Source of the DNA: Candidatus Micrarchaeota archaeon
Lineage (GTDB): Archaea; Micrarchaeota; Micrarchaeia; Norongarragalinales; UBA97
Length of the DNA: 39,256 nucleotides
Direction: 5' to 3'
NCBI GenBank assembly: GCA_021782355.1
Contig: JAJXUZ010000002.1
Coordinates: forward strand, 1 to 39,256
The notes below the pieces were generated by a model. It saw only the letters and a list, made by a program, of their open reading frames with translations, was not told where the DNA came from and searched no databases. Positions 5,114 through 30,385 of the stretch are shown here, in pieces. Positions within the stretch are counted from its first letter, which is position 1. Each line of letters begins with the position of its first letter. Position numbers and translations under genes: made by a program.

Positions 5114-5262
5114 GTGCCGAGGGCGAGACTTGAACTCGCGACCTCCAGATCGCCCAGATTGCTTAAGACCTTGAGTGAGAATCTTTCAATCGTATGAGTC
5201 TGGCGCTCTAACCGGCTGAGCTTTCGATACCTTAATGAAATAAATCTTTAAGGTTACCTCGG
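5114..5262 (-). tRNA. tRNA-Met/Ile2 (anticodon CAT) with two introns (about 33 nt after position 9, about 42 nt at 37/38)
   Basis: Hand-folded from the reverse complement: GCCGAGG-TA-[33 nt]-GCTC AGCCGGTTA GAGC-G-CCAGA CTCATA-[42 nt]-A TCTGG-AGGTC-GCGAG TTCAAGT CTCGC-CCTCGGC-A. The mature length is 74 nt and all four stems pair. An extra GCCGAGG copy at 5265-5271 makes the exact 5' end ambiguous. CCA is not encoded. Confidence 0.75.
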
Positions 5263-7232: not shown

Positions 7233-7339
7233 GCTCCAATCGTCTAGTCCGGTCAAGGACAGCGGCCTTTCGAGTTAATAATTCAAACAATTATTGACGA
7301 AGCCAGCCGCTAACACGGGTCCAAATCCCGTTTGGAGCA
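7233..7339 (+). tRNA. tRNA-Glu (anticodon TTC) with a 32-nt canonical 37/38 intron
   Basis: GCTCCAA-TC-GTCT AGTCCGGTCAA GGAC-A-GCGGC CTTTCG-[7273-7304]-A GCCGC-TAAC-ACGGG TCCAAAT CCCGT-TTGGAGC-A. The mature length is 75 nt. Confidence 0.85.
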
Positions 7340-9598: not shown

Positions 9599-10510
9599 AT
9601 GAAAATCGGAATTATCGGTTTAGGGAAAATGGGCGGATTGCTTGCTCTCAATTTAATTGATAAGAAAATTAATGTGGTAGGTTATAATCGCAGTCCTCAG
9701 GATACTAAACTCCTAGCAAAAAAAGGTCTTATCCCCTCCTATTCTTATTCTGAATTTATAGAGAAGTTAGATTCAACAAAAATAATTTGGCTAATGGTTC
9801 CAGCCGGTCAAGCAGTTGATTCCGTAATTGATGATTTATTGCCTTATTTGAAAAAAGGAGATTATGTTATTGATGGAGGAAATTCCAATTATCTTGACTC
9901 AATTAGAAGATATTCAATGCTAAAGAAAAAGTCAATTAATTTCATCGATTGCGGCACAAGCGGTGGTTTAGAGGGTGCAAGGAACGGTGCTTGCTTAACA
10001 ATTGGTGGAGATTATTCTTCCTTTAAAAAGTTAGAATTTCTTTTCAAATCAGCTGCTTCTAAAAACGGTTATTTATATTGTGGAAAAAGTGGTGCAGGAC
10101 ATTATGTGAAAACAGTACATAATGGAATCGAGTATGCTATGTTGGAAGCATATGCAGAAGGATTTGAAATTCTTTCAAAATCAGATTATGGATTTGATTT
10201 GTCTAAAATTTCAGACACCTGGTCTTCAAGTTCAGTAATTAGGTCCTGGTTGACTGAACTTGCAACAAGGGCATTCAAAAAAGATCCTAAACTTTCAAAA
10301 ATTTCTCCTATCGTTGGTGGAGGAGAAACTGGACTTTGGACTATTGACCAAGCCAAAGCCCTCAAACTATCCGCTCCAATCATTCAGCTATCGATTGATA
10401 GAAGAAAGAAAACAAGTGAAACAAAACCATTTTCTGGTCGTGTGATAAATGCATTAAGGCACGAATTCGGTGGACATCCAGTCGATATAGTTTCTAAAAA
10501 TAAGAAGTGA
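9599..10510 (+). CDS. gnd: 6-phosphogluconate dehydrogenase, short (about 300 aa) decarboxylating type
   Basis: N-terminal Rossmann motif IGLGKMGG, DGGNS, and the GHYVKTVHNGIEYAMLEAYAEG core typical of Gnd/YqeC-type enzymes. A GGGGGA SD-like element lies 7 nt upstream of the ATG. Confidence 0.85.
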   Translation: MKIGIIGLGKMGGLLALNLIDKKINVVGYNRSPQDTKLLAKKGLIPSYSYSEFIEKLDSTKIIWLMVPAGQAVDSVIDDLLPYLKKGDYVIDGGNSNYLDSIRRYSMLKKKSINFIDCGTSGGLEGARNGACLTIGGDYSSFKKLEFLFKSAASKNGYLYCGKSGAGHYVKTVHNGIEYAMLEAYAEGFEILSKSDYGFDLSKISDTWSSSSVIRSWLTELATRAFKKDPKLSKISPIVGGGETGLWTIDQAKALKLSAPIIQLSIDRRKKTSETKPFSGRVINALRHEFGGHPVDIVSKNKK

Positions 10511-11163
10511 AAATTACGATGTTCAAAATAAGTAAAATAATCGACATTTCTTTGCCTTTACAAGAGAATATGGTAATTTATCCTGGCAATCCTGAGTTTT
10601 CATTGGAGTTTATAAAAAAAATTCCAGAATTTACTTCAACCGTTTCAAAACTATCTATAGGAAGTCATAGCGGAACACACGTAGATGCACCCAAGCACGT
10701 TGATGAAAATGGTAAACCAATTAGTTTTACTGATATTTCAAAATTAATCGGTCCTGCAATTGTAATTGATTGTACTGAAGTTGATTTCGGCAATGGAATA
10801 ACTAAGGAAATTTTACAAACAAAGCCGATTAAACCCAATATGATAATTTTACTTAAAACTAAGAATTCAAAAAGAGGTTATTCAACCTTTTACTCCGATT
10901 TCATCTTTGTAGATTCTACCGGTGCCGATTATTTATTAGAAAAAAAAGTTCGTTCAATCGGTGTGGATTATTTAGGAATACAAAAATATCATTCCGGAAA
11001 TAACATTGTTCATAAAGCATTTTTAGATAAAGAAATCCCAATTATAGAGGGATTAAATTTATCTGCAGCAAGTCAGGGCACTTATTTTCTGAGTTGTTTA
11101 CCATTAAATGTTATTAATGCCGAGGCATCAATGGCAAGAGCAGTATTAATTGAAGGTGGGTAA
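10507..11163 (+). CDS. Putative cyclase-family metal hydrolase (kynurenine formamidase-like)
   Basis: HSGTHVDAPKH signature of the putative-cyclase/arylformamidase family. The GTG start overlaps the gnd stop by 4 nt; an alternative ATG is at 10519. Confidence 0.7.
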   Translation: MKITMFKISKIIDISLPLQENMVIYPGNPEFSLEFIKKIPEFTSTVSKLSIGSHSGTHVDAPKHVDENGKPISFTDISKLIGPAIVIDCTEVDFGNGITKEILQTKPIKPNMIILLKTKNSKRGYSTFYSDFIFVDSTGADYLLEKKVRSIGVDYLGIQKYHSGNNIVHKAFLDKEIPIIEGLNLSAASQGTYFLSCLPLNVINAEASMARAVLIEGG

Positions 11164-14945: not shown

Positions 14946-16313
14946 TTATTTCTTTTGTAAAATAGTTTTTGTCTGATTCTTATATAGTTCAACAGCTGGT
15001 TGGTCAAAAGGATTAACGTTCATTAAATGGCCAAGCATAATTATTTGAATCATTTGAAGTTGCATTAAAAATCCTAAATTTTCTTCATTTAATTCTTGTA
15101 GTTCTATTGTAACAAATGGAATATGGGACTCTTTCATTGCATTTTTAGTACCATTCAAAATTGCATCCATAAGTTGTACAATCGACTTGTTTGAAACATT
15201 AGGTACAATTTCTTCAATTTCATTATCTTTTTTTAGTATTATTTTTTCCTTCTGTTTTACCGAAATAATTGCAAAAAGTTTGTCTTTGGGTCCACCAAAA
15301 TATAATTGTCCGATAGAATGTAAATCAGTTGACCCAATTGAAACAGTGGGAGTCATTCCAGCATTCAATTTTACATTACCAGAGGCACTAAATTGTTTTC
15401 CTATACTTTCTGCCATTAATTGTCTGTGCCATTTGCCCAATGCCTCTAAACTTGTATCAAAAATAAATTCATCTAAGATTTTCTTTCCCATTCGATTTTG
15501 AAGATGATAAATCGAAGCCAATTTGACAGCGGGATTATTTAATCCATAATTATTGGTGCAAATTTCAACTGCCTTTCTTGCACCTTTAAGTAATTGACTA
15601 CAATCTACCTCTGCCCATAATAAAGGAAACAATCCAACGTTTGAAAAAACAGAGTATCTTCCTCCCACTTTTTTCGGAATATTTAGTATTGAATATTTTC
15701 TATTTAATGCAAGTTTTTCAAGTGGAGATGATTTATCTGTTGTAATTACTACGTATTCTGGATTTTTAGAAACATAGTTCCTAAATTTCTCTAAAAAGAA
15801 CATTAGATTTGCTATTGTTTCTGTAGTAGAACCGGATTTGGATATTCCGTTGAAAATAACTTTCTCCTTCGCTTTCAATTTAGTTTCAATTATTCGTGCT
15901 ATTTCAATTAATTTATTTTGGTCAACTGTATCGGCAAATAAAACCAACTTCTTTTTTGATTCAATATTTTTTAGAAGACCGAATTTTCCTTCAAGTACTG
16001 CCATTGTACCTAAATTCGAACCACCAATTCCTATCAAAACCAAAGTTGTTGCATCATTAAGTTTATTTGAGAGTTTTTTAGATTCGTTCAAACAATCATT
16101 ATTGTAACTGAGAACCACTGATGCATAATCAGAAGAGTAATCTTGTTTTTTGAAAGTTTCCTTTATTTTGTTAACAATTGGATTTAGTTTTGCACATTCT
16201 TGAGATATTCGTTGAGTTGTAACATTAGAACTATCCGTGCCAATTGAAAGTTGCTGAAAATTAAAATTAGTATTATCTGCTTTGTTTAGTGGTTTCATTA
16301 AAGAAGAAATCAA
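14946..16313 (-). CDS. pgi: Glucose-6-phosphate isomerase
   Basis: GIGGSNLG and SKSGSTTET motifs of the PGI/SIS family, with size appropriate for the short PGI type. Confidence 0.85.
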   Translation of the reverse strand: MISSLMKPLNKADNTNFNFQQLSIGTDSSNVTTQRISQECAKLNPIVNKIKETFKKQDYSSDYASVVLSYNNDCLNESKKLSNKLNDATTLVLIGIGGSNLGTMAVLEGKFGLLKNIESKKKLVLFADTVDQNKLIEIARIIETKLKAKEKVIFNGISKSGSTTETIANLMFFLEKFRNYVSKNPEYVVITTDKSSPLEKLALNRKYSILNIPKKVGGRYSVFSNVGLFPLLWAEVDCSQLLKGARKAVEICTNNYGLNNPAVKLASIYHLQNRMGKKILDEFIFDTSLEALGKWHRQLMAESIGKQFSASGNVKLNAGMTPTVSIGSTDLHSIGQLYFGGPKDKLFAIISVKQKEKIILKKDNEIEEIVPNVSNKSIVQLMDAILNGTKNAMKESHIPFVTIELQELNEENLGFLMQLQMIQIIMLGHLMNVNPFDQPAVELYKNQTKTILQKK

Positions 16314-16921: not shown

Positions 16922-17016
16922 CGGGCCCGGTGGGATTCGAACCCACGACATCCTGCTCTCTTCTTGTTGAAAACAACTAGAAGGCAGGCGCTCTGTCCAG
17001 ACTGAGCTACGGGCCC
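16922..17016 (-). tRNA. tRNA-Arg (anticodon TCT) with a 20-nt canonical 37/38 intron
   Basis: Reverse complement: GGGCCCG-TA-GCTC AGTCTGGACA GAGC-G-CCTGC CTTCTA-[GTTGTTTTCAACAAGAAGAG]-A GCAGG-ATGTC-GTGGG TTCGAAT CCCAC-CGGGCCC-G. The mature length is 75 nt. Confidence 0.85.
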
Positions 17017-17304: not shown

Positions 17305-18627
17305 ATGAAAAAAATAATTTCTTCAATTATTCTATTAGTAACTGCGCTTTCAATTTTTTCTTTTGTAGGTGCCGATGTAATGATGCCGGTAGGAGTGCCA
17401 GCAAATTCATTAGGTTCGCAAGGTATGATGCATTCAAACGGTTCAATGGGTATTTATGCAACCGGCGTGTTGCACGCTCCTCTTCCCGGTTCGTTACCAA
17501 CTAGTCAATTTTCTAACGGAAGCATAAACAGTTCATATGGAGAGTTTCAAGGAGAAATCAGACCTTATTTAGTACCAATGATGCAAGGCGTCCTTAACAG
17601 AGAAATGGAAATATCTCAAAGAGAAATGTCATTACACGCAAGAATTTCTGAAGATTTCAATCAACAAGCATCGTTAAATTCAAGATTAATGTCATTTAGA
17701 CAAATGGGTGCAGACTCATTAAATTCAACAGGAAGAGAAGAATATTCTCAAGTAGTTTTTGATTCAATGCAAGCATTTTTCGATCAAGCATATTCTACTG
17801 CATTATCTTATTCAAATAGTTCCGATTCAGTAATTGCAGCAAATGCCACAAATCTTATGCAAGTAATTGTTGCTGAAAATAGCTCAATAACTGTAAACTC
17901 GACCGGTCAAGAAAAAATGGATGCATTTGAAAACGTCACTGTTGCAGTCCAACAATTCAAACAAAATATTCGAGACTATGAATTACAAGTAAGATTAGGT
18001 TCAGCATTAAACGATTCTTATAATCAAGTAATCAACTTCCAAAAAGCATTAAGTGCATTAAGCCAAGCTGGATTTAATGTAACCAATGCTCAAGTTTCAG
18101 CAAATTATCTTTTAGCAGATATTCAATATGCTCAAAACTTGTCAACTTCATCAAACTCTTCAGTAAGAGTAAGTCAAGGATTCTTATTCGCAATTAAACT
18201 TGGCTTAGATTATGAAAAACAAGCTTTAGTTCAAGCAGTATCGAATTCAGTTGTAACCCCAATTCCAACATTCTTAACCGAGTCCCCATCTACTTTAGAA
18301 AGTTCATTTAATGTAGTTGGTTCAGTTGAATCAGCATTTTCGAAAGATATGTCAAATATAATGACCGAACAAATGAATATTGAAGATTCAATGATGAATT
18401 CAAACGTTACTGAAGATAACTCATCCTCAGCTTTAAGTGATGTTTCAAATTCAGACAATTCAACCATTTCAGATAATGGAAATTCAACTGATAATATGAA
18501 TTCATCCGCTTCGGACAATTCCTCAGTTGATGCAAACTTAACTTCAAACGACTCTGTAAGTTCAACCGATTCAAACAGTTCAATTAACGTAAATATTTCA
18601 ACATTAACAAACTCATCCGACAATTAA
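17305..18627 (+). CDS. Secreted, predicted helical N/Q/S-rich protein with an acidic S/N/D low-complexity tail; paralog of the 24959-26497 product
   Basis: N-terminal signal-like segment MKKIISSIILLVTALSIFSFVGA and an AGGTG SD upstream. No catalytic motif recognised. It shares repeat-unit motifs with the 512-aa protein: LMQVIVAENSSITV vs LMNQVISDANSSIVQ, and VSANYLLADIQYAQNLS vs VSVSNYQTDYQSTQSELS. Confidence 0.8.
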   Translation: MKKIISSIILLVTALSIFSFVGADVMMPVGVPANSLGSQGMMHSNGSMGIYATGVLHAPLPGSLPTSQFSNGSINSSYGEFQGEIRPYLVPMMQGVLNREMEISQREMSLHARISEDFNQQASLNSRLMSFRQMGADSLNSTGREEYSQVVFDSMQAFFDQAYSTALSYSNSSDSVIAANATNLMQVIVAENSSITVNSTGQEKMDAFENVTVAVQQFKQNIRDYELQVRLGSALNDSYNQVINFQKALSALSQAGFNVTNAQVSANYLLADIQYAQNLSTSSNSSVRVSQGFLFAIKLGLDYEKQALVQAVSNSVVTPIPTFLTESPSTLESSFNVVGSVESAFSKDMSNIMTEQMNIEDSMMNSNVTEDNSSSALSDVSNSDNSTISDNGNSTDNMNSSASDNSSVDANLTSNDSVSSTDSNSSINVNISTLTNSSDN

Positions 18628-18639
18628 ATTACATAAATA

Positions 18640-18966
18640 ATGGAGAAACCGAACGAAATGAATTTTAATAAAATTTTTCTAGTTGCATTCGCATTTGTTA
18701 CACTTTCAGTAGTTGCTTGCGGATGCCTTAGTAGTTCACCAAACACACAAACAAACACTCAAGTTGGCAATGTTGTAACTACTACTCTTGCCACCAATCA
18801 ACCACAAGTAAATTCAAGTGCAAATTTGACAGTTAATCAAACTGTTGCTCAAACCTTAAATTCATTAAACAATGCATCAGCAAATGTGAATTCAGTCTAT
18901 AATGGAGTAAACGATTCAAATCTTACTGCTCCAAACTTGACTGCTTCAGACTTTAATGTTAGTTAA
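18640..18966 (+). CDS. Small secreted/lipobox-like protein (T/N/S-rich)
   Basis: Hydrophobic leader ending in VVAC-GC, which is lipobox-like. The likely true start is the ATG at 18658 (MNFNKIF...), which has a GGAGA SD 11 nt upstream. It begins 13-31 nt after the preceding gene. Confidence 0.65.
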   Translation: MEKPNEMNFNKIFLVAFAFVTLSVVACGCLSSSPNTQTNTQVGNVVTTTLATNQPQVNSSANLTVNQTVAQTLNSLNNASANVNSVYNGVNDSNLTAPNLTASDFNVS

Positions 18967-19071: not shown

Positions 19072-19144
19072 AGCCCCGTAGTGTAGTGGTCAAGCACGAT
19101 AGGCTCTGGACCTGTAAACGACGGTTCGAATCCGGCCGGGGCTA
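19072..19144 (+). tRNA. tRNA-Gln (anticodon CTG), intron-less
   Basis: AGCCCCG-TA-GTGT AGTGGTCAA GCAC-G-ATAGG CTCTGGA CCTGT-AAAC-GACGG TTCGAAT CCGGC-CGGGGCT-A. Length is 73 nt, with an A1-U72 pair as in archaeal tRNA-Gln. There is one A-G mismatch in the T-stem. Confidence 0.8.
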
Positions 19145-19221: not shown

Positions 19222-22200
19222 ATGATTTATCACATTAAATTTCTAAATAATTTAAAATTATTTTTACTTTTTTTTGTATTGTTTTTTGCAAGTGCCAGTG
19301 CACTTTTTATTAGTCAAAACGCAAGTAATGTATTTTCAAATGGAGCATTTAATTTAACAACTACAAATTATTCTCAAAGTGTTTATGCTCTTTATAATTC
19401 CACTTCATTGACTTACGATGGAAATGGAACTTATTACGGTCCAATGGTGAATTTGTATAATTATACTGGGATGAGCGAGCAGTATTTTCTTAATTCAGTA
19501 TATTGGAATTGGTACGAACCAACTTCTTCATATGTTAATTCAATTACCAATGTAACCTCATTTGTTATAACTCTAAATAATAGTCAAACAACTTCTACTC
19601 CTGCATATTTCCAACAATTATTAACTATCAACAGTTCACAATTTTCAAATTACATAAATGCTAATTGGAGTAATGTTGTATTTTCTACCGGACCACTAGA
19701 TACCGGATTAAACATAACTGCTTGGATTGAATCTGGTAACACGAACACATCTACTTCAACTTATGTTTGGATAGCTGACCCTTATTCAATTGGAGCTTCA
19801 TCAAATCAAACAATTTATATGAACTTTGTAAATTACTCGGTTTTAAGTTCAAACGGACCTACCGGTGAAGCACCCAACCTTTCTCCTTCTTATGGCCAGT
19901 ATGATGATGGAGCTTTAATTTTCTTAAATTACTTTAATTTTAACGGAACCACCATACCTTCTGGAGTATCAGTTGCTTCAGATGCATCAAACGGCACAAT
20001 AGTTTTTAATAATTCAGCAAAAGTTGAAGCAAATAATACCGATGGAACTAACGGAGAATTTCTTTTCATAAATAATACTTATTCTCCTTCTTCTTACATT
20101 ATAGATTCTTTTTTTGAGAATGGAAGTGAAAACACCAACGACAAACTTAATGGATGGGACGAAGTAATTCCAACAAATCAATCAGGTTGGTGGGGTTGGC
20201 CAAAAGGAGTAACTTCTGGTTTTCACAATCAACCCGAAACTGTAACAATATTAAACACTAGTGCAACAACCTATCAAACTTATCAATCTTCAAACGGAGT
20301 AAATCAAGTTATTTCACCTACTGTGGTAAGTACAGATTGGTTCTCACCGACTACCACCTCGGCAATTTTCAATTATTCAATATTTGCAAATTCTTCTACT
20401 GATATTCCTCCAATGATTAATTCTTATCCCGTATTGGGTTATACTAGTAATGGTGCATTTGTTACATTAAGTTGGGCAAGAATGCGTTTAACTCCTCCAA
20501 ATAATGTAATGCCGTTTGTAACCGTATCAACCAATCCAATGAATTCAATTTATGCATCTCTTATTTTGGACTTACCACTTGAAAACGATTTTAGAGATAT
20601 TTCTACCAATAATGTTACTGTAACTCCAAGTTCACCATCTCCTTCATTTCAATCAAATTGTCAAATAGGAAGTTGTGCGACATTTAACGGAGTAAACGAG
20701 TCCCTCTCATTACCTGTTGGTTTTCTGAATAATGATTTACAATTTACTATCTCGATGTGGGTTAAAACCAATTCCTCAGCATTTTCAAATACTCTTGGTG
20801 ATTTTCCAACTTTCTTTGGATTAACTAACGCGGGTTTTGGTACTGGTAGTTTACAATTAGGAATTAACAATAGTTATCTGACAGTTTCAAGTGGATTAAT
20901 GCCCCGCATTAGTTTTTATTATCAAACTAATTCATATCTTGCCGATAATAATTGGCATCAAGTTTTATTTGTTGATAATGGTTCTAATTATAGTTTATAT
21001 TTAGACAATAATCTATCAACCACATTTATTTCAAACATTACCTTTAATTCTAGTACATTTGGTCCATACCTTGGTGCTGATGATAATTTAGGTACTGCTT
21101 CATATTTCTATAATGGTTCAATTGATGAAGTTCATGTTTGGAACCAAGCATTAAATTCAACTGAAATATCTGCACTTTATACGTCTGAAGGTCAAGGTCA
21201 CTTTATTCATAATTTTACTAATGTTACAATTTCTGTAAGGGTAAAACCAGATACGTTTAATGAATCCGGACTTATAGGTTGGTGGGATTTAGGTAATTCA
21301 CTAGCAAATGAAACTGTTTCAAATGAAAGCTTAGATTTAAGCGGTTATAACAATCCATTGTTATTTTATAACTCGCCATCTGTTTCAACAAATGGAATCA
21401 TAGGGAATTCTTTAGAATTCAACGGAACCAATTATTTAGAACCAGAAAAAAACATCAATTTCAATCCATCAATTTCAAACTTTACAATATTGGTATGGGT
21501 TAATCCAAACTCAAGCGGTACTATTCTTTCCAGTCTCGATAATTCGGGCACAGGAGTAACCTATCTTGGAATAGATAATTCGTCTATTTGTGGTGCAGGA
21601 ACAGCGTTTTATACTTCATTAAACGGAACCCCGCTTTGTACTGATTATAACATTACTCCAAATCAATGGTATCAATTAGGTGTTGAAAGAAATGGAAATA
21701 ATATCTTTTTAATTATTAACGGTACGTTTGAGAATATTAGTACTACCACTCCTTCAAGTGATTTAGGTAACTTTATCATTGGTGAAAACAAAACTTTCGG
21801 GCAGGGATTTTCAGGTTATTTAAGCGATTTGATGATTTTTAACCGAAGTCTAAATACTTCATACATCTATCCATTTTATCATAATGGAAATCCAACTAGT
21901 TTGGGTGGTTTAGAATCAAACTGGACAAACTGGACAAAAATAAATTCAGGTCAGAACTTAACCTTAAATGATACTGGATTAGTTCAATATCAAGCTACTT
22001 TTAGAAGTATAAATTCAAATTATTCGGCATTTTTGGATAACGTTTCATTTCAATTTAATTTACTACCTAATCAAACTTATCAAATGCCGATTTATGTTTT
22101 AAATCGTCAATCAACTGCAACAGGTAATAACTATCAACAATTAATTCAATTGAATTTTTCACAATTTACTCCATATCTTAATTCAAATTATGGCAATATC

Positions 22201-24324
22201 CGATTTTGTTTGGATACAAACTGTTCGATTTTATTAAATTCTTGGCTTGAAAATCCCGGTTCAATAAATCAAAACGCAACTATTTGGGTAAATCTTACCG
22301 ATGGTATTAATGGAAATAGTTTTTACCCGATTTACTTTACCATTTTCAATCCGCAATTAAACTTTGATGGTTATTATTGGGGAGAAGCACCCGACTTAAC
22401 CAATCCTTATGGAATTTATGATAATGGTCAAAACGTGTTTGTAAATTATGGCGGAGGCGGAAATAACGTTTGGAATGAATTCTCTTTTGAAGGTGGAAGT
22501 TGGGATTATAATAATGGATATCTGGAGCAAACCTTATCCAGCGGTTCTTATACCGGTGGTCCTGCAGCTTACATCACTTCTACTCAATATGCCGCTAATG
22601 GTAGTTATGTATTGACAGAATCGTTTAATTATAGTGATGCATCAAATGCGAGAGTAGGAATAATTGCTGATGGTACGTATACTGGCAATGATATGTATGC
22701 ATATCGATTTATTGGTGAAACCCACGCAAATTCAAACGGATTTGTAAGTTTTCTTAATGATGAAGTAGCTTGGGTAGCAAATGGAAATTATACCGGTTCT
22801 TCATTAAACACTCCTTATACTCTTAACGTATCAGATAATGGTGGAATTTGGAGTTCTAATCTGTATGCTGGAAGTGATAACGAAACTTCCACTTCAATTG
22901 CCAATTTAACTAATGTTAATTATTCTAGTCCTAACGGGATGTCCGCTACCACTGGTTATGTGGGAATAAGTGCAGCTTATATGGCTAATTCAGTTACTCC
23001 CGTATCTGCAATTCCAATTAATGTAAATTGGTTTTATGTAAGGTTGCTTGCGCCAAATGATACTATGCCTTATCAAGCAGTTAATGTTACTTCATTATCC
23101 ACATCATTAATATCTCCAACTAGTGGCAATGCAAGTGCTTATGGCCAATCTACGAACTTAGTCTTTTCAGTATCTACTCCGGAATTCAACCTAGTCAATG
23201 CATCGCTTTACACAAACTTTACAAATGGTTGGTCAATAAACCAAACAATTTACAATGTGACATTAAATTCAGCTGTTCAAAATCTTAGTTATAATTTCTC
23301 AAACCTTCCTGTTGGCACTTATGTTTGGAACGTATTTGTAAATGATGGCAATTCTTCCACTTGGGCAAATAATGGAAATTATACCTTTACTATAAGTTCC
23401 TCCAATTCAAATTCTACTACTGCTCAAATCAATGGTGTTCCTCAACCACCTTATTGGTATGACCCTTCGTTATACCCACTTTATCCTTCTAATACCCAAG
23501 CACCAGGTGTAGTAACTACTACCACCTTAGTTCCTGTTGCTCCACAAGTTCAAAGTTACACTGGAATAAGCAATATTACTGATTTTGTAAACATTGGATA
23601 CAGTAGAAACTTTAATTATCAATCGTACTTTTCTCCAAATGATACTGGCACACTTAATATTTTAATTTCTGGAAATGGCTCTAAATTAATTGCATTAGAT
23701 AATTCTACTTTGGAAGTAAGTAGTGATGGTGGTTATTCACAAATCAATTACACTATCTTTACGAATAGTCAAACTTTACCCGGTTTATATGTTGCAAACC
23801 TTTCTATTATGAATGTAAAAGGTCGGTTAATTAATTCAATTCCAGTTTACATTGACGTTTTACTTGCTCAACAAAAGTTAATGGATATTTCATTAACTAC
23901 TTTAAGTTCTACTATTAAATCATATTCACCAATTAGCTATTCGCTTGATTTGAAAAATGTCGGACAACAAAGTAAATATGACGTTGATATTCTATTGACT
24001 CTATTAGATTCCAACGGAAATACTGTCCAATCTCAGCAATACACCGTGTCAATGATTAGTGAACTAAATCTTACCAATGAATTTAATATTACAAAAGCAA
24101 TTTCAGATGGAACTTATCAATTAATTGCAAATGCAAGTTATTTCGACCCAGCAACCTCGCAATTCAGATATGCAGAGTCGTCAGTTCAACTTAACAAGCT
24201 AACTCCAAGCAATTTCCTTCTTTCAGAGAATTTTGTAGTTGGTTTGATTATAATCCTTGTAGTGTGTTTAGCAATAGTATTCCGGCCAAAAGACAAAAAA
24301 ATTAAACAGAAACATTTAAATTAG
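19222..24324 (+). CDS. Giant (1700 aa) membrane-anchored surface protein: signal/TM, [DUF2341-like + jelly-roll-like module], 2x LamG (Laminin_G_3-like), a second [DUF2341-like + jelly-roll-like module], Ig-like, CARDB-like, C-terminal TM anchor
   Basis: Uninterrupted 5.1-kb ORF. DUF2341-like stretches are YFQQLLTINSSQFSNYINANWSNVVF...ITAWIES...YVWIAD and NYQQLIQLNFSQFTPYLNSNYGNIRF...NSWLEN...IWVNL. LamG hallmarks are FTISMWVK...WHQVLFV...GSIDEVHVWNQALNSTEISALY and FTILVWVN...WYQLGVE...GYLSDLMIFNRSLN. The C-terminal anchor is FVVGLIIILVVCLAIVF followed by RPKDKKIKQKH. I count about 90 N-x-S/T sequons by hand. An A/T-rich TATA-like element lies about 27 nt upstream and there is no SD, so the mRNA is possibly leaderless. 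Confidence 0.9.
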   Translation: MIYHIKFLNNLKLFLLFFVLFFASASALFISQNASNVFSNGAFNLTTTNYSQSVYALYNSTSLTYDGNGTYYGPMVNLYNYTGMSEQYFLNSVYWNWYEPTSSYVNSITNVTSFVITLNNSQTTSTPAYFQQLLTINSSQFSNYINANWSNVVFSTGPLDTGLNITAWIESGNTNTSTSTYVWIADPYSIGASSNQTIYMNFVNYSVLSSNGPTGEAPNLSPSYGQYDDGALIFLNYFNFNGTTIPSGVSVASDASNGTIVFNNSAKVEANNTDGTNGEFLFINNTYSPSSYIIDSFFENGSENTNDKLNGWDEVIPTNQSGWWGWPKGVTSGFHNQPETVTILNTSATTYQTYQSSNGVNQVISPTVVSTDWFSPTTTSAIFNYSIFANSSTDIPPMINSYPVLGYTSNGAFVTLSWARMRLTPPNNVMPFVTVSTNPMNSIYASLILDLPLENDFRDISTNNVTVTPSSPSPSFQSNCQIGSCATFNGVNESLSLPVGFLNNDLQFTISMWVKTNSSAFSNTLGDFPTFFGLTNAGFGTGSLQLGINNSYLTVSSGLMPRISFYYQTNSYLADNNWHQVLFVDNGSNYSLYLDNNLSTTFISNITFNSSTFGPYLGADDNLGTASYFYNGSIDEVHVWNQALNSTEISALYTSEGQGHFIHNFTNVTISVRVKPDTFNESGLIGWWDLGNSLANETVSNESLDLSGYNNPLLFYNSPSVSTNGIIGNSLEFNGTNYLEPEKNINFNPSISNFTILVWVNPNSSGTILSSLDNSGTGVTYLGIDNSSICGAGTAFYTSLNGTPLCTDYNITPNQWYQLGVERNGNNIFLIINGTFENISTTTPSSDLGNFIIGENKTFGQGFSGYLSDLMIFNRSLNTSYIYPFYHNGNPTSLGGLESNWTNWTKINSGQNLTLNDTGLVQYQATFRSINSNYSAFLDNVSFQFNLLPNQTYQMPIYVLNRQSTATGNNYQQLIQLNFSQFTPYLNSNYGNIRFCLDTNCSILLNSWLENPGSINQNATIWVNLTDGINGNSFYPIYFTIFNPQLNFDGYYWGEAPDLTNPYGIYDNGQNVFVNYGGGGNNVWNEFSFEGGSWDYNNGYLEQTLSSGSYTGGPAAYITSTQYAANGSYVLTESFNYSDASNARVGIIADGTYTGNDMYAYRFIGETHANSNGFVSFLNDEVAWVANGNYTGSSLNTPYTLNVSDNGGIWSSNLYAGSDNETSTSIANLTNVNYSSPNGMSATTGYVGISAAYMANSVTPVSAIPINVNWFYVRLLAPNDTMPYQAVNVTSLSTSLISPTSGNASAYGQSTNLVFSVSTPEFNLVNASLYTNFTNGWSINQTIYNVTLNSAVQNLSYNFSNLPVGTYVWNVFVNDGNSSTWANNGNYTFTISSSNSNSTTAQINGVPQPPYWYDPSLYPLYPSNTQAPGVVTTTTLVPVAPQVQSYTGISNITDFVNIGYSRNFNYQSYFSPNDTGTLNILISGNGSKLIALDNSTLEVSSDGGYSQINYTIFTNSQTLPGLYVANLSIMNVKGRLINSIPVYIDVLLAQQKLMDISLTTLSSTIKSYSPISYSLDLKNVGQQSKYDVDILLTLLDSNGNTVQSQQYTVSMISELNLTNEFNITKAISDGTYQLIANASYFDPATSQFRYAESSVQLNKLTPSNFLLSENFVVGLIIILVVCLAIVFRPKDKKIKQKHLN
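19549..20526 (+). repeat. Protein-level module copy 1 inside the giant ORF (aa ~110-435)
   Basis: Collinear motif matches with copy 2: YFQQLL..SQF..Y.N.N..N..F; GEAPNLSPSYGQYDDGALIFLNY vs GEAPDLTNPYGIYDNGQNVFVNY; WARMRLTPPNNVMP vs WFYVRLLAPNDTMP. Confidence 0.65.
22069..23076 (+). repeat. Protein-level module copy 2 inside the giant ORF (aa ~950-1285)
   Basis: See copy 1. The order of the three anchor motifs and the spacing (about 325-335 aa) are the same. Confidence 0.65.
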
Positions 24325-24399: not shown

Positions 24400-24948
24400 T
24401 TGACAAAATCGTTGCTTAAAATTTCTGCTATTTTGCTTACTGGATTTTTATTATTTGGTTGTTTAGGTTCTTCGTCTTCTACTGGTACAAATAATCAAGT
24501 ATCAAATTCAAATGTCCCAACAACAACTTTATCTGTAATACAAAATACCAATACTTCTTCAAGTAATTCGAGTATTTTTTATTCGAATGTTTTAGTAATC
24601 GATAGCCTTACCCAAGAGCCCGTAATTGGGGCATTGTTAACTTACAATGATTCAGTTTTAGGAACTCAAACAATTTATTCTCAATCTGATGGTTCAGCAA
24701 TTTTACCAATGTCAACTTCAACAGAACAAGTTTCAATTAGTGATTCAGGTTATACCACCCACGTTCAGCAAGTTAGTACATCAAATACTACTATTTTCTT
24801 AACCGAATCATCGTTAAACGACCCATCAATATCCGTTAACGGAAGCAATCAAACTTCAATAAATGATTTAATTGTTGGAAATGATAGTTCGACAAATTAC
24901 TCAAGCGGAGTAAGCGGAATTTCTTCTTCCGACCTTAATACAACTTAA
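24400..24948 (+). CDS. Small lipobox-like secreted protein with a beta-rich CarboxypepD_reg/PEGA-like core
   Basis: Leader MTKSLLKISAILLTGFLLFG-C (lipobox-like). The core VLVIDSLTQEPVIGALLTYNDSVLGTQTIYSQSDGSAILP...ISDSGYTTHVQ resembles carboxypeptidase-regulatory-like folds. The start is TTG with a GGTGA SD about 11 nt upstream. Confidence 0.65.
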   Translation: MTKSLLKISAILLTGFLLFGCLGSSSSTGTNNQVSNSNVPTTTLSVIQNTNTSSSNSSIFYSNVLVIDSLTQEPVIGALLTYNDSVLGTQTIYSQSDGSAILPMSTSTEQVSISDSGYTTHVQQVSTSNTTIFLTESSLNDPSISVNGSNQTSINDLIVGNDSSTNYSSGVSGISSSDLNTT

Positions 24949-24958
24949 GTTTAGAAAT

Positions 24959-26497
24959 TTGGTGATAATGGCGATGAACTTTGATTTTAATAAATTTTCA
25001 ACAATATTTTTAGTTTTTATTCTAAGTGCTTCATTTTTAACCGGGCTTACCAATGCCTTACCAACTTCAAGCAATAATGCTCGAATTAGTTACTTAAATT
25101 GTGTAATCAATTACAATGAGGGCTTGCTTAACACTCTTTCAAAAATCGACCCATCCATAGCCTCAATCAACTCAGCATCATTAAACCAACTTTCAAATGA
25201 CCAGAATCAATTAAACACGCTATTAAATTCAAACGATTCTCAAATTAACTCATTCGTAAAAGGTTCATTACAATCTGATTTACAAAATTCTCGTGGTAAT
25301 TTCAAAAGTTCAATTTCACAATTAAGACAATTATTAATTTCAAAATCATTAAATCGCTCCTTGATGAATATGAGTGTATTAAAATCAGATTATGCAACAT
25401 TAATTCAAAGTAGAAATTCTTGTTTTGCTCAAAGCTATTCTCAAGCAGTATCAGACAGAATCAACTACTATCTACAAGTATTAGTTGCCTATCAGTTAAT
25501 CATATCTAATCACACTAGCCAAACTAACAATTTAACCGCAACAACACTTGACCCAACTTTAATGAACCAAGTAATTTCAGATGCAAATAGTTCAATTGTT
25601 CAACCTATGCAAAATGCATTAACGGCCTTGCAGTCAATGAATTCGACTAATGAAAGTGAATATTATTCGATATTAAACGAATATTCGTTATTTGATTCTG
25701 CAAGTTCATCAAACGAAATGAATTATCATTTTCATTCCAGGTTTATTCTAGCTTATTTACAATCAAGAGCAATTCAATTAACTTCTTTAGCAAATTCAGA
25801 TGGAGTTAGTATGGCTCAATATCAAACTGATTTTGATTCTGCAAATTCTACTTTAAATCAAATAGGTAATTTACAATATTCAAAAGGTCAAGAACAGCAA
25901 TTGTATGAACAATTCAGAACAATTCATTCAGATTTGATAAATGTAAGCACTCAAATATTCTTATCAAGGCATTTAACTACGGTATTAACTCAAAGATATT
26001 CTGATTATTCTGCAATTTTAGCAAACTACTCAGCATTAGTTGCTAAATGGTCAAATACCACTGATTCACTTACAAATTCTACATTAAACGTTTCGGCGTT
26101 AACTGAAGTTCTAAATAATGCAAATCAAACAATTTTAATGCCAATTGAAAACGCAATAGTTTCAAACAATACCCAAAGTATGAAATTAGCCTTACAAGAT
26201 TATTGCTTATATGATTCTTGCCAAGCAAATTCAAGTTCAGTTTACAATTTCCATTTAGCAGCACAATTTGCATTAAATACAGTAAATGCACGATATATGC
26301 AGATTCAATCATTAGCACAAGCGAAAAACGTTAGCGTAAGTAATTATCAAACAGATTATCAATCAACTCAAAGTGAATTAAGCAGTATACTGCCAAATTA
26401 TGATGATGCTCAAACTCAAGCAGTTTTATGGTCAGATATTGGCAAAGTTTCTCACGATGAGTTTCAAATTAGATTGGCTTTGAATAAAGCAGCATAA
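24959..26497 (+). CDS. Secreted, predicted helical N/Q/S-rich protein with an internal tandem duplication; paralog of the 17305-18627 product
   Basis: Signal-like segment FSTIFLVFILSASFLTGLTNA. The probable start is the ATG at 24968 or 24974 rather than the TTG at 24959. It lies 10-25 nt after the preceding gene. No catalytic motif recognised. Confidence 0.8.
   Translation: MVIMAMNFDFNKFSTIFLVFILSASFLTGLTNALPTSSNNARISYLNCVINYNEGLLNTLSKIDPSIASINSASLNQLSNDQNQLNTLLNSNDSQINSFVKGSLQSDLQNSRGNFKSSISQLRQLLISKSLNRSLMNMSVLKSDYATLIQSRNSCFAQSYSQAVSDRINYYLQVLVAYQLIISNHTSQTNNLTATTLDPTLMNQVISDANSSIVQPMQNALTALQSMNSTNESEYYSILNEYSLFDSASSSNEMNYHFHSRFILAYLQSRAIQLTSLANSDGVSMAQYQTDFDSANSTLNQIGNLQYSKGQEQQLYEQFRTIHSDLINVSTQIFLSRHLTTVLTQRYSDYSAILANYSALVAKWSNTTDSLTNSTLNVSALTEVLNNANQTILMPIENAIVSNNTQSMKLALQDYCLYDSCQANSSSVYNFHLAAQFALNTVNARYMQIQSLAQAKNVSVSNYQTDYQSTQSELSSILPNYDDAQTQAVLWSDIGKVSHDEFQIRLALNKAA
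25544..25858 (+). repeat. Internal protein repeat, copy A (aa ~196-300 of the 512-aa protein)
   Basis: TLDPTLMNQVISDANSSIVQPMQNAL...EMNYHFHSRFILAYLQSRAIQLTSLA...VSMAQYQTDFDSANSTLN aligns collinearly with copy B. Confidence 0.7.
26081..26398 (+). repeat. Internal protein repeat, copy B (aa ~375-480 of the 512-aa protein)
   Basis: TLNVSALTEVLNNANQTILMPIENAI...SVYNFHLAAQFALNTVNARYMQIQSLA...VSVSNYQTDYQSTQSELS aligns with copy A. Confidence 0.7.
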
Positions 26498-27067: not shown

Positions 27068-28537
27068 TTGACATTTTCCGAACTAACTAAAGACTATCTA
27101 AAAAATCACAGTATGGTTGAGCAATTCCTTGAATCATACGATAAGTTCGTAGAAACAGGCTTGCAATCAGTAGTAGAATCCCAAGAAGTAATCGAACCTC
27201 AAATCGAAGGACTTGTTTTAAAGCTTGGTAAAATTCGAGTTGAAAGACCCCGAGTAATTGAAGTTGACGGTTCCTCTCACATTTTATATCCAATGGAAGC
27301 AAGAATTAGAGACCTATCTTATACTGCTCCACTGTATCTTGAAATTACTCCAGTAATTCACGGAAGTGAAAAAAGAAGCGAAGAAGTTTTTATTGGAGAA
27401 TTACCCGTGATGGTAAAAAGTAAATTATGCTACTTAAATGGAAAATCTGAACAAGAATTAGTTGAACTTGGCGAAGATTCAATGGACCCTGGCGGATACT
27501 TCATCATTAATGGAACTGAAAAAACATTAATGACTTTAGAAGATTTGGCTCCCAATCGAATTCTCGTATCCAAAGAAAAAGACGGAAAAGTTGTTCAATC
27601 TAAAATCTTTTCTACCCGATTAGGATTTAGGGGAAGGTGCACTGTTGACCGCGCATCAGATGGAAAATTATCAGTAACTCTCCCATCATATAACAAAGCA
27701 ATTGAATTGTCTTTGGCAATTAAATCACTTGGAATTGATAAGCCAGAAAAGATTATGGAAGCTTTTTCCAATGACCCCGAAATAATTAATGACATTACCT
27801 TAAATCTTGAACTTGACGAAGCTAAAAACAAGAGAGAAGCTCTTGAAATCATCGGAAAGCGTGCCGCTCCCGGTCAACCAACCGAATATCAAGTAAGAAG
27901 AGCTGAAATGCTTTTAGACCGATACTTGCTTCCACATATTGGTTCAGATGAACAAAGCAGATTAGCAAAAGCATTTTTCTTGGCCAGAATGGCAGAGAGA
28001 GCAATTTTAGTAGCTTACAAGAAACGTGCAGTTGATGACAAAGACCACTATTCAAACAAGAGACTAAAAATTACCGGAGAATTAATGGAAGAATTATTCC
28101 GTTATGCATTTGGATTTTTAGTTAAAGATGTAGCTTATCAAATGGAAAGGGCAAATGTTCGAGGAAGAAAAATGTCGATGTTTGCAGTTGTTAGACCTGA
28201 CGCATTAACTGAAAGAATTAGGTATTCAATGGCAACTGGAAACTGGGTGGGCGGACACACTGGCGTATGTCAACCACTTGACCGATATAACTTCATCTCA
28301 GCAATGTCGTTCTTAAGAAGAGTAACCTCTCCTCTTGCTAAAAAACATCCACATTTTAAAGCAAGAGATTTGCACGGCACCCATTATATGAGATTAGATC
28401 CAAACGAAACTCCGGAAGGTCCAAACTGTGGACTTGTAAAAGCACTTAGTGTTTTTGCTCAAGTAACTACTGGATCAAACGAAGAACCAATCGAAACTTC
28501 GCTTAAAAAATTAGGCGTATCGATGAAATTTGATTAA
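27068..28537 (+). CDS. rpoB2: DNA-directed RNA polymerase subunit B'' (N-terminal half of RpoB)
   Basis: Conserved N-terminal RpoB blocks: VEQFLESYDKFV, LSYTAPLYL, GYFIINGTEK, DDKDHYSNKRL and PEGPNCGLVK. The start is TTG. Conservation extends upstream of the first ATG at 27113. Confidence 0.95.
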   Translation: MTFSELTKDYLKNHSMVEQFLESYDKFVETGLQSVVESQEVIEPQIEGLVLKLGKIRVERPRVIEVDGSSHILYPMEARIRDLSYTAPLYLEITPVIHGSEKRSEEVFIGELPVMVKSKLCYLNGKSEQELVELGEDSMDPGGYFIINGTEKTLMTLEDLAPNRILVSKEKDGKVVQSKIFSTRLGFRGRCTVDRASDGKLSVTLPSYNKAIELSLAIKSLGIDKPEKIMEAFSNDPEIINDITLNLELDEAKNKREALEIIGKRAAPGQPTEYQVRRAEMLLDRYLLPHIGSDEQSRLAKAFFLARMAERAILVAYKKRAVDDKDHYSNKRLKITGELMEELFRYAFGFLVKDVAYQMERANVRGRKMSMFAVVRPDALTERIRYSMATGNWVGGHTGVCQPLDRYNFISAMSFLRRVTSPLAKKHPHFKARDLHGTHYMRLDPNETPEGPNCGLVKALSVFAQVTTGSNEEPIETSLKKLGVSMKFD

Positions 28538-28570: not shown

Positions 28571-30385
28571 TTGCAATTGAAGGCAACTGTATTTCTTAAC
28601 GGAAGATTTGTAGGATTTCATGAAAACGGCGAGCGTTTAGCAAAAGAAATTCGAGAAAAAAGAAGAACCGGAGAACTCCCATATTCAATTAATGTTTCAT
28701 TCTATTCAAAGACCGGAGAAGTTTTCATCAACTCAGATAAGGGAAGACCAGTTAGACCATTAATTGTAGTTAAAAACCAAAAGAGTACTTATACTGAAGC
28801 AATCGAAGAAAAAGTCAAATCAGGTTCAACTCATTGGTTTGAACTTGTTAAAAGCGGAATTATTGAATATTTAGATGCTGAAGAAGAAGAAAACGCATAC
28901 GTTGCAAATTCTCAAAAAGATATTACTGAACGAACCACTCACTTAGAGATTGACCCACTTGGAATTTTGGGTTATGCCTCAGCACAAGTACCATTTCCAG
29001 AATACAATATGGCTCCTCGTGTATTGATGGCAGCACAGCACACCAAGCAATCACTTGGATTATATGCATCTAACTTTAATTTAAGAACCGACACTCGCGC
29101 ACACATTTTATTCTATCCTCAAAAACCAATTGTTCAAACCCGAGCCTATTCAGAACTTGGTTTATCAAATCGTCCAAGTGGAGAAAACTTTGTAGTTGCA
29201 ATTTTGTCTTACAAAGGATTCAATATGAACGATGCCGTTTTTATGAATAAATCCTCAATTGAACGTGGAATGGCAAGAAGCGCCTTCTTAAGATCATACG
29301 CAACCGAAGAGCGAAGATATCCGGGAGGACAAAAAGATAAAATCGAAGTTCCTCAAGAATATGCTCAAGGCTATATGTCCGAAGATGCTTATTCATACTT
29401 AGATGAAGATGGAATTATTAATCCCGAAACTATTGTAAATGGAGATGCAGTTTTAGTTGGTAAGACCAGTCCTCCAAGATTTCTTAAGGAAATTTCAGCA
29501 TTAGATGTTGAAACAGAAAAAAGAAGAGAAAGTTCATTAACAGTAAGAAGCAATGAAAGCGGAATTGTTGATGGAGTTATTATTTCTCAAACAACTAGTG
29601 GAAACCGATTAGTAAAAGTAAGAGTAAGAAACACCTGCATTCCAGAAATCGGAGACAAATTTGCAAGTAGATTCGGACAAAAAGGAGTTATTTCGTTATT
29701 ACTCAATCAAGCAGATATGCCCTTTACTAAAGATGGTATTACTCCTGACTTAATTTTGAATCCTCACGCAATTCCCGGAAGAATGACTGCCGGACATTTA
29801 CTTGAAATGCTTGGTGGAAAAGCAGGAAGTATGGACGGTTCATTAAAAGACGGTACTGCATTTAGCGGTCAAAAACAAGAGGAATTTGAAAAAATCTTAC
29901 TTTCTCAAGGATTAAGACCAACCGGTCAAGAATACTTGTATGATGGGGCAACTGGAAAGAGAATGTTGGCAACCATTTATATGGGAGTTGTTTATTATCA
30001 AAGACTTCACCACTTAGTAAGCTTGAAGATGCACGCAAGGTCAAGAGGACCAGTTCAAATGCTCACTCACCAACCAACTGAAGGTAGAGCAAGAGAAGGT
30101 GGTTTGAGACTTGGTGAAATGGAACGTGACTGTTTTATTGGTTACGGTTCAGCATTGCTACTTCACGAAAGAATGATTGACTCTTCAGATAAAACCACTG
30201 AATTGATTTGTCAAAATTGTGGCGCATTAGGAGTTTTTGATAAAATTAAAAAGACAAAATACTGCCCACTTTGTGAATCAGCAGATGTGGAAGATGTTGA
30301 AATGTCATACGCATTCAAGCTTTTGCTTGATGAAATGAAATCATTACACATCTGGCCAAAAATGAAACTAAAAGAACGTGGTTAG
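28571..30385 (+). CDS. rpoB1: DNA-directed RNA polymerase subunit B' (C-terminal half of RpoB)
   Basis: SRFGQKG, PDLILNPHAIPGRMT, LRLGEMERD and the C-terminal zinc ribbon CQNCG...CPLCES. The start is the TTG at 28571 or 28577. The first in-frame ATG is about 146 codons in, inside conserved sequence. Confidence 0.95.
   Translation: MQLKATVFLNGRFVGFHENGERLAKEIREKRRTGELPYSINVSFYSKTGEVFINSDKGRPVRPLIVVKNQKSTYTEAIEEKVKSGSTHWFELVKSGIIEYLDAEEEENAYVANSQKDITERTTHLEIDPLGILGYASAQVPFPEYNMAPRVLMAAQHTKQSLGLYASNFNLRTDTRAHILFYPQKPIVQTRAYSELGLSNRPSGENFVVAILSYKGFNMNDAVFMNKSSIERGMARSAFLRSYATEERRYPGGQKDKIEVPQEYAQGYMSEDAYSYLDEDGIINPETIVNGDAVLVGKTSPPRFLKEISALDVETEKRRESSLTVRSNESGIVDGVIISQTTSGNRLVKVRVRNTCIPEIGDKFASRFGQKGVISLLLNQADMPFTKDGITPDLILNPHAIPGRMTAGHLLEMLGGKAGSMDGSLKDGTAFSGQKQEEFEKILLSQGLRPTGQEYLYDGATGKRMLATIYMGVVYYQRLHHLVSLKMHARSRGPVQMLTHQPTEGRAREGGLRLGEMERDCFIGYGSALLLHERMIDSSDKTTELICQNCGALGVFDKIKKTKYCPLCESADVEDVEMSYAFKLLLDEMKSLHIWPKMKLKERG

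Follow-up and report, generated by a model that had tools for sequence, protein, structure and literature searches.

The stretch of DNA analysed here, 39,256 nt of contig JAJXUZ010000002.1 from a Candidatus Micrarchaeota assembly (GCA_021782355.1; the whole stretch is called the window below), contains at positions 19222-24324 of the plus strand an open reading frame (ORF) that starts with ATG and encodes a protein of 1700 amino acids (aa), as given in an earlier, sequence-only reading. The composition of the protein is biased towards Asn (13.2%), Ser (12.6%) and Thr (9.5%), with few Lys and Arg residues, and its ectodomain is acidic, with 99 Asp and Glu residues versus 32 Lys and Arg. It begins with a signal peptide of Sec type, composed of a Lys-containing n-region, a hydrophobic core and an ASASA c-region, and ends with a transmembrane (TM) helix and a basic tail. 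Between these lie two copies of a large module enclosing two LamG domains, an immunoglobulin (Ig)-like domain, a linker and two beta-sandwiches (Table 1).

Identical copies of the gene are present in another NCBI assembly (GCA_027356165.1, contig DAIEGP010000030.1) and in ENA sample ERZ27236853. Apart from these, no full-length orthologue was found among 5.8 billion clusters. The best relative extends over 23% of the query, and the relatives retrieved in the full-length search, which are exclusively multi-module DUF2341 proteins, never cover more than 23-28%. A search of a genome-contig collection with the full protein gave a sole match, to a LamG domain in a Caldilineaceae metagenome-assembled genome, while PDB sequence searches with the whole protein and with the LamG pair found nothing.

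Self-alignment confirmed an internal duplication. Residues 100-440 and 940-1290 align by BLASTP with E = 2e-14, 36% of the first 125 aa being identical, and in phmmer the copies are collinear over their full length (15-339 to 955-1290, independent E-value 2e-7). Three anchors recur in the same order, QQL at 131/972, GEAP at 215/1054 and W..R..P at 418/1270, with spacings of 84 and 203 aa in copy A versus 82 and 216 aa in copy B. The sequence-only reading had placed a duplication at aa ~110-435 and ~950-1285 with three collinear anchor motifs at the same spacing, and both claims hold; its anchors turned out to be exactly the invariant columns of a wider module family. Since no DNA-level repeat longer than 31 nt exists inside the gene, the duplication is old.

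The wider family was defined with a profile built from 17 modules (alignment A1, both query copies included). This profile retrieved at least 351 proteins at E ≤ 1e-5, and 143 full-length modules were delimited in 129 proteins, 96 of them ending no more than 12 aa from the protein C-terminus. The module is ~340 aa long and consists of a conserved head with the invariants N, W.E, W and GEAP.L...Y.YD.G..F..Y, a hypervariable body and a closing motif, W.R.RAYPPNGVMPS. Across the 143 modules, the head (54% mean pairwise identity) and the closing strand (58%) are much better conserved than the body (23%), whose length ranges from 173 to 264 aa. Both query copies have the make-up of this ARMAN-type module (head, GEAP.L...Y..YD.G..F..Y, variable body, W.R.R..PPNGVMP) and contain all 15 invariant residues of the A1 alignment. 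On the 341 positions of the family profile, module A, itself part of the training set, matches 2-340 and module B matches 3-339, the end of module B being divergent (APNDTMP). Among 136 family proteins, the body of module A (aa 246-420) has no relatives, and that of module B recurs only in P0032 (E = 4.6e-46) and P0002 (E = 6.1e-44); P numbers designate individual homologues.

Pfam knows the head of this module as DUF2341 (PF10102), which is matched by 64 of 72 aligned relatives at E ≤ 1e-3 (best 4.9e-14) and is carried by P0002-P0014. The query itself scored 20.9 bits as a whole protein, 15.6 bits for module A and 20.7 bits for module B. The modules had previously been described as DUF2341-like; this assignment stands through the relatives, although the query copies themselves fall below the Pfam gathering score. 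Named relatives belong to Ca. Parvarchaeota (ARMAN-4 BJBARM4_0839 and ARMAN-5 BJBARM5_0529), Micrarchaeaceae, Acidifodinimicrobium, Marsarchaeota and Rehaiarchaeum. Hundreds of proteins of Parvarchaeota, Micrarchaeota and Marsarchaeota have the module as their standard unit.

A typical family member is ~450-520 aa long, with a pilin-like N-terminus and one module at its very C-terminus. At least 51 of 135 relatives begin with [KR][SAG]-QSALEYMMTYGWAILI and a hydrophobic stretch. Read as a motif, this N-terminus conforms to the pattern of an archaeal class III (type IV pilin-like) signal peptide, in which a basic and a small residue are followed by Q at +1, E at +5 and a hydrophobic stretch. 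The ARMAN proteins BJBARM4_0839 (P0078) and BJBARM5_0529 (P0055) share with the query the ~340-aa module and its invariants (N, W.E, W, GEAP, Y.YD.G..F..Y, R...P....P), but proteins of this type are ~500 aa long, with a [KR]SQSALEY N-terminus and one C-terminal module, whereas in the query two modules are combined with two LamG domains, an Ig stalk and a TM anchor. The topology of the query is not unique in the family, because a minority of relatives (P0067, P0114, P0100 and P0103) likewise combine a Sec-type signal with a C-terminal TM anchor. In P0027 a C-terminal polytopic membrane domain of ~250 aa (aa ~370-626) is fused to the module and replaces the single TM helix.

Both domains enclosed by the modules surpass the gathering score of the Pfam family Laminin_G_3 (27.6 bits; Table 1) and are homologous to each other (E = 2e-7). 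They end with G.IDEV.VWNQALN and G.LSDL.IFNRSLN, respectively, in agreement with the motifs quoted in the sequence-only reading, which had recognised two LamG domains between the module copies. The TafC model (NF052521, Tat-fimbria subunit) matched LamG1 only (aa 472-659), with 26.4 bits against a cut-off of 410. Whereas the LamG domains of the query lie between modules, those of P0003 (aa ~520-730) and P0008 (aa ~100-300 and ~1190-1390) are inserted into the DUF2341 head itself, at a point flanked by its SWLESG and WLKL strands.

For DUF2341 proteins encoded in methanococcal pilus loci, a function as type IV pilus tip adhesins has been predicted (Makarova et al., PMC4858521), and in Methanococcus maripaludis the DUF2341 gene of the epd pilus locus was repeatedly struck in a screen for transformation defects (PMC10133366). 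These proteins (PF10102; arCOG03508 or MJ1470 type; MMJJ_08210 in M. maripaludis) resemble the query in the DUF2341 head, in their large size, in being secreted and in the adhesive function predicted for them at the cell surface (PMC4858521, PMC10133366). The query differs from them in lying outside a pilus locus, in its Sec-type signal and TM anchor, and in scoring below the Pfam gathering threshold.

A further setting of the module, newly found in the present analysis, is in archaeal viruses. Each of the 30 virus records matched in a phage collection, nearly all of them rudiviruses, has a conserved protein that aligns with the head of module B (34-39% identity over ~125 aa, E-values down to 4e-9), and several of these records label the protein as structural. 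In SIRV2 the match is ORF564 (gp39; NC_004086.1, 23785-25488), encoded immediately downstream of ORF1070, the tail-fibre protein through which the SIRV2 virion binds host type IV pili (PMC7911016). ORF564 and its homologues in Rudiviridae share the head with the query; unlike the query, ORF564 is viral, aligns in the head only, and has neither LamG domains nor a TM anchor. The DUF2341 head was also found on 25 IMG/VR contigs. Most simply, since it is common to pilin-like proteins, virion proteins and surface giants, the module would be an attachment domain.

One relative, P0123, is a bare 336-aa module without a signal peptide (positions 10001-11011 of locus L007, from contig JAJZYN010000008.1, GCA_021798035.1; also locus L008). 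Its contig is virus-like, with ~35 small, mostly same-strand ORFs, and encodes a packaging ATPase of Pox_A32 type (PHROG 2666, E = 8e-15). It may belong to a virus of an ARMAN-like archaeon that uses the module for attachment.

Given these relatives, it has to be considered whether the protein is an adhesin incorporated at the tip or base of a type IV pilus and not a free-standing membrane protein. The DUF2341 genes of archaeal pilus loci (PMC4858521, PMC10133366) and the pilin-like N-termini ascribed to most relatives speak for such a role. Yet the Sec-type N-terminus of the query, MIYHIKFLNNLKLFLLFFVLFFASASA, lacks the [KR][SAG]-QSALEY motif and with it the [KR][SAG]-Q...E signature of the class III signals, the C-terminus is a TM anchor, and the window has no pilus genes. 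We therefore regard a pilus component as improbable.

The protein contains 91 N-glycosylation sequons, almost twice the number in shuffled sequences of the same composition (47.7 ± 5.6; z = 7.8), consistent with an earlier hand count of about 90. Their density, 5.35 per 100 aa, compares with 0.2-1.5 in the cytoplasmic proteins of the window, and none falls in the TM helix or the tail. Judging from this excess, the protein is probably heavily N-glycosylated.

A large, acidic, sequon-rich protein with a C-terminal TM anchor could also be a lattice-forming S-layer protein or an S-layer stalk subunit, and an S-layer-type function had been offered in the sequence-only reading as one of two options. 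Sulfolobus SlaB is anchored in this manner (PMC6098224), and glycosylated S-layers exist in Micrarchaeota (10.1101/2021.04.28.441871); both SlaB and the SLP_Mh protein of Ca. Micrarchaeum harzensis are large glycosylated surface proteins (PMC6098224; 10.1101/2021.04.28.441871). In the S-layer protein of Micrarchaeum, however, PF05123 and domains of the TIGR01564/TIGR01567 types are present, and 38 of 49 Micrarchaeota genomes encode homologues of it (10.1101/2021.04.28.441871), whereas no S-layer domain, these types included, was matched in the query by Pfam or NCBIfam at E ≤ 1, and outside its identical copies the best relative reaches only 23% coverage. The query further differs from SlaB and SLP_Mh in its adhesin-type domain set, and its modules belong to a family whose bodies are hypervariable and which is found on pilin-like proteins and in viruses. 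The S-layer option thus found no support, and an S-layer role is unlikely.

The C-terminal third (aa 1286-1700) was searched exhaustively with HMMER against 1.84 billion representatives, yielding 105 proteins at E ≤ 1e-3 that fall into two classes. Matches of the first class cover aa ~1290-1400 and correspond to an Ig-like unit (N.SLYTNF..W ... Y.WNV.C) that is repeated in further surface proteins of large size, among them P0146 (E = 8e-15). Pfam gave Y_Y_Y, PKD and Ig_J for aa 1294-1395, all below threshold, and the AlphaFold2 model of this region is all-beta with low confidence. An Ig-like domain had been suggested at aa ~1290-1392; it is backed by the homologous repeats elsewhere, although not by Pfam above threshold. 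The Pro/Thr/Val-rich linker predicted to follow it is present.

The second class consists of 87 proteins matching aa ~1475-1695. An AlphaFold2 model calculated with their alignment shows two sandwiches at aa 1452-1547 and 1554-1659 and a TM helix at 1669-1686, all with a predicted local distance difference test score (pLDDT) of 90-97. Sandwich 2 is the conserved core of the 87 homologues (LFD..., N.G, DV, Y.I.D..GN, AVET, G.Y), and, in the case of sandwich 1, some homologues have weak HYDIN/VesB-like Ig matches. With Foldseek the two sandwiches resemble tandem Ig-like arrays (HYDIN/ASH domains, TEP1 and complement MG domains, RbmA and CEP192) at E = 2.5e-8 to 1e-5. Of the earlier proposal of two late beta-rich segments, the last one CARDB-like, the segments themselves are confidently modelled as Ig-like sandwiches, but CARDB (PF07705) was not matched at E ≤ 1 by either the whole protein or aa 1544-1663 alone; on the modelled fold, the term 'CARDB-like' would be acceptable only in the sense of an Ig-like (E-set-type) sandwich.

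The last 50 residues are ...KLTPSNFLLSENFVVGLIIILVVCLAIVFRPKDKKIKQKHLN. The TM helix has a Kyte-Doolittle hydropathy of 3.13 over 18 aa; the helix and the basic tail were confirmed, and the C-terminal anchoring proposed in the sequence-only reading is supported. The same reading compared this ending with a sorting signal. Indeed, the order of polar motif, TM helix and basic tail is the general layout of archaeosortase substrates, secreted glycoproteins such as the ArtA-processed PGF-CTERM S-layer glycoprotein of Haloferax volcanii (PMC6098224), so that TPSNF, helix and tail could in principle constitute a novel signal of this type, with the TM segment cleaved off and the protein lipid-anchored. 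Unlike ArtA substrates, however, the query has neither PGF nor another known signature (PEF- and VPXXXP-CTERM among them): when its last 50 aa were compared with NCBIfam at E ≤ 10, the sole match was an F0F1 ATP synthase subunit (E = 0.15). A TM helix with a Lys/Arg-rich tail is retained within the last 160 residues in 65 of the 87 class 2 homologues, no pre-TM motif is common to these 65, and their cytoplasmic tails range from 3 to 133 aa, the tails beyond 50-130 aa being suited to permanent anchors. No other ORF of the window has the same ending, and TPSNF is probably a chance occurrence, because it recurs at the soluble, non-membrane C-terminus of relative P0130. Besides, archaeosortases have been reported from a subset of Euryarchaeota (PMC6098224). 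The sorting-signal architecture therefore went unsupported, and we consider a cleaved signal very improbable; a plain permanent type I membrane anchor of positive-inside orientation is the better reading.

Table 1. Features of the 1700-aa protein and their coordinates in the window
Feature	Residues	Coordinates	Strand	Basis or remarks
Sec-type signal peptide, MIYHIKFLNNLKLFLLFFVLFFASASA	1-27	19222..19302	+	sequence reading
N-terminal region, unknown fold, 6 sequons	28-99	19303..19518	+	no Pfam/NCBIfam match
Module A: DUF2341 head, unique variable body, WARMRLTPPNNVMP end	100-441	19519..20544	+	
LamG domain 1 (Laminin_G_3)	491-650	20692..21171	+	PF13385, E = 5.3e-17, 62.8 bits
LamG domain 2 (Laminin_G_3)	735-880	21424..21861	+	PF13385, E = 1.3e-15, 58.3 bits
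Short connector, unknown fold, 5 sequons	886-939	21877..22038	+	no family match
Module B: DUF2341 head, body common to P0032/P0002, WFYVRLLAPNDTMP end	940-1293	22039..23100	+	
Ig-like domain	1294-1395	23101..23406	+	homologous repeats elsewhere; Pfam sub-threshold
Pro/Thr/Val-rich linker	1396-1450	23407..23571	+	sequence reading; disordered in model, pLDDT 30-40
Beta-sandwich 1	1452-1547	23575..23862	+	AlphaFold2 pLDDT ~90-97; Foldseek Ig-like arrays
Beta-sandwich 2, membrane-proximal	1554-1659	23881..24198	+	AlphaFold2 pLDDT 90-97
C-terminal TM helix, LLSENFVVGLIIILVVCLAIVF	~1666-1687	24217..24282	+	hydropathy and AlphaFold2
Basic cytoplasmic tail RPKDKKIKQKHLN and stop codon		24283..24324	+	sequence reading

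Module B was modelled by AlphaFold2 with an alignment of 72 sequences (mean pLDDT of the whole model 63.3). Its head is a confident beta-sandwich (pLDDT 86-93), and its body is all-beta at low to moderate confidence, with block means of 31-72. The top Foldseek ranks against PDB are occupied by concanavalin A (ConA)-like lectins, GH16 glucanases (laminarinases) and carbohydrate-binding modules, none of them significant, and form a theme rather than a result. A relationship of the body to LamG or ConA folds is unproven, and the jelly-roll fold attributed to the module in the sequence-only reading amounts to a guess at the level of the fold. An enzymatic nature of the bodies, such as that of ConA-like glycoside hydrolases or lyases, which would make the protein a surface-tethered polysaccharide degrader, is hardly credible: GH16 laminarinases and lectins appear among those ranks and LamG domains often stand beside glycan-active proteins, but no fold match is significant, no Pfam enzyme family occurs in the 72 relatives, and the body is the least conserved part of the module, with none of the 15 invariant columns inside.

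Taken together, the domain content and topology lead us to favour, with moderate confidence, the view that the protein would be a membrane-tethered, glycosylated, multivalent adhesin of an ARMAN-like DPANN archaeon of low GC content (Parvarchaeota/Micrarchaeota type). The adhesin reading is reasonable because the protein combines LamG domains with modules of a predicted pilus adhesin family that also occurs in pilin-like and rudivirus proteins. The sequence-only reading had arrived at a lectin-like, glycosylated, C-terminally anchored adhesin or S-layer-type protein; of this, the Sec-type N-terminus, the TM anchor, the sequon excess and the binding-type LamG and DUF2341 domains sustain the adhesin, and the S-layer part is lost.

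We infer that such a protein would be exported by the Sec pathway, with subsequent cleavage of the signal peptide, that many of its 91 sequons would be N-glycosylated, and that it would be retained at the surface through the single C-terminal TM helix with its short Lys-rich cytoplasmic tail. The two membrane-proximal Ig-like sandwiches and the Pro/Thr linker would form a stalk, which would carry a distal array composed, from the stalk outward, of the Ig-like domain, module B, LamG2, LamG1 and module A. The distal ~1,300 residues would thus display four binding-type units (modules A and B and LamG1 and 2), that is, several distinct binding surfaces, and in each module the DUF2341 head and the W.R.R..PPNGVMP closing strand would together form a frame that presents a hypervariable, all-beta body of ~200 aa. 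The ligands may be glycans or surface proteins belonging to another cell, here a host archaeon, to a biofilm matrix or to a pilus.

Several observations weigh against this adhesin. Neither query copy reaches the DUF2341 gathering score of 23.4 bits. Neither Pfam nor NCBIfam has a model that recognises the pilin-like N-termini of the relatives at E ≤ 1, and pilus machinery is not adjacent in the loci of the two relatives examined (P0002 and P0079). At the structural level, Foldseek found nothing significant in PDB for the module B model (pLDDT 63; best E = 0.14), the module family profile has no match to solved structures by sequence at E ≤ 1, and hhalign gives a probability of 0.2% for a relationship between the module family and LamG.

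Comparable giants are known from other lineages. P0016 (Woesearchaeota) and P0015 (Dojkabacteria, Patescibacteria) are very large secreted proteins with Laminin_G_3 repeats like the query, and P0015 also carries DUF2341. LamG-rich giants of DPANN archaea and Patescibacteria are thought to mediate attachment (PMC11809585). Both differ from the query in having many more LamG repeats, and their similarity to it is confined to LamG or the DUF2341 head, with coverage of 11-28%.

The window has a GC content of ~33%; the genomes of ARMAN-4 and ARMAN-5 have ~34%, which would agree with an ARMAN-like DPANN host. Since it encodes a split RpoB, RpoA', a thermosome, EF-2, L30e, S12 and S7, along with NusA-KH, the window is archaeal. 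RNA polymerase subunit B is encoded by two genes (27068-28537 and 28571-30385, plus strand), which are followed by RpoA', L30e, NusA-KH, S12, S7 and EF-2 in a conserved archaeal transcription-translation cluster.

Four uncharacterised Asn-rich, signal-bearing proteins without any Pfam match are encoded on both sides of the giant gene on the same plus strand (17305-18627, 18640-18966, 24400-24948 and 24959-26497). The flanking 440-aa protein is enriched in sequons (24 versus 10.3 expected, z = 5.1). The N-termini of the 108-aa and 182-aa proteins are lipobox-like (VVACGC and LLFGC) and mutually similar (E = 6e-5), and the 512-aa protein is internally duplicated (E = 1.4e-10). A paralogous relationship between the 440-aa and 512-aa proteins was rejected (E = 0.17). 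A tRNA-Gln(CTG) gene (19072-19144, plus strand) is located 78 bp upstream of the start codon of the giant gene. Three other tRNA matches, at 16922-17016 (minus), 7233-7339 (plus) and 5123-5222 (minus), are 95-107 nt long, which suggests that they may contain introns.

The window also encodes glucose-6-phosphate dehydrogenase (3321-4667, plus) and a short 6-phosphogluconate dehydrogenase (9599-10510, plus), both oxidative pentose-phosphate genes, as well as phosphoglucose isomerase (14946-16313, minus). Complete pentose-phosphate pathways are reported to be undetected in Micrarchaeota and Parvarchaeota and rare in Archaea (PMC5864196).

As a single gene, the one described here is not exceptional: it is an ordinary member of a known, uncharacterised group of DUF2341/LamG archaeal surface proteins. 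Its modest interest is raised somewhat by the module, which occurs as one attachment unit in three predicted settings: pilin-like proteins, a membrane-anchored stalk and archaeal viruses. With a conserved frame around a hypervariable body and no match to solved structures by sequence, the module family would repay structural and binding studies. Attachment to other archaea is part of the lifestyle of ARMAN-type DPANN archaea. It is conceivable, if rather unlikely, that the DUF2341 frame with its hypervariable body serves as a swappable recognition cassette of acidophilic DPANN archaea, used by pilin-like proteins, anchored giants and viruses alike; the protein described here, bearing two different cassettes as well as two LamG domains, would then help to set the host cell, for example one of the Thermoplasmatales, to which its bearer attaches.

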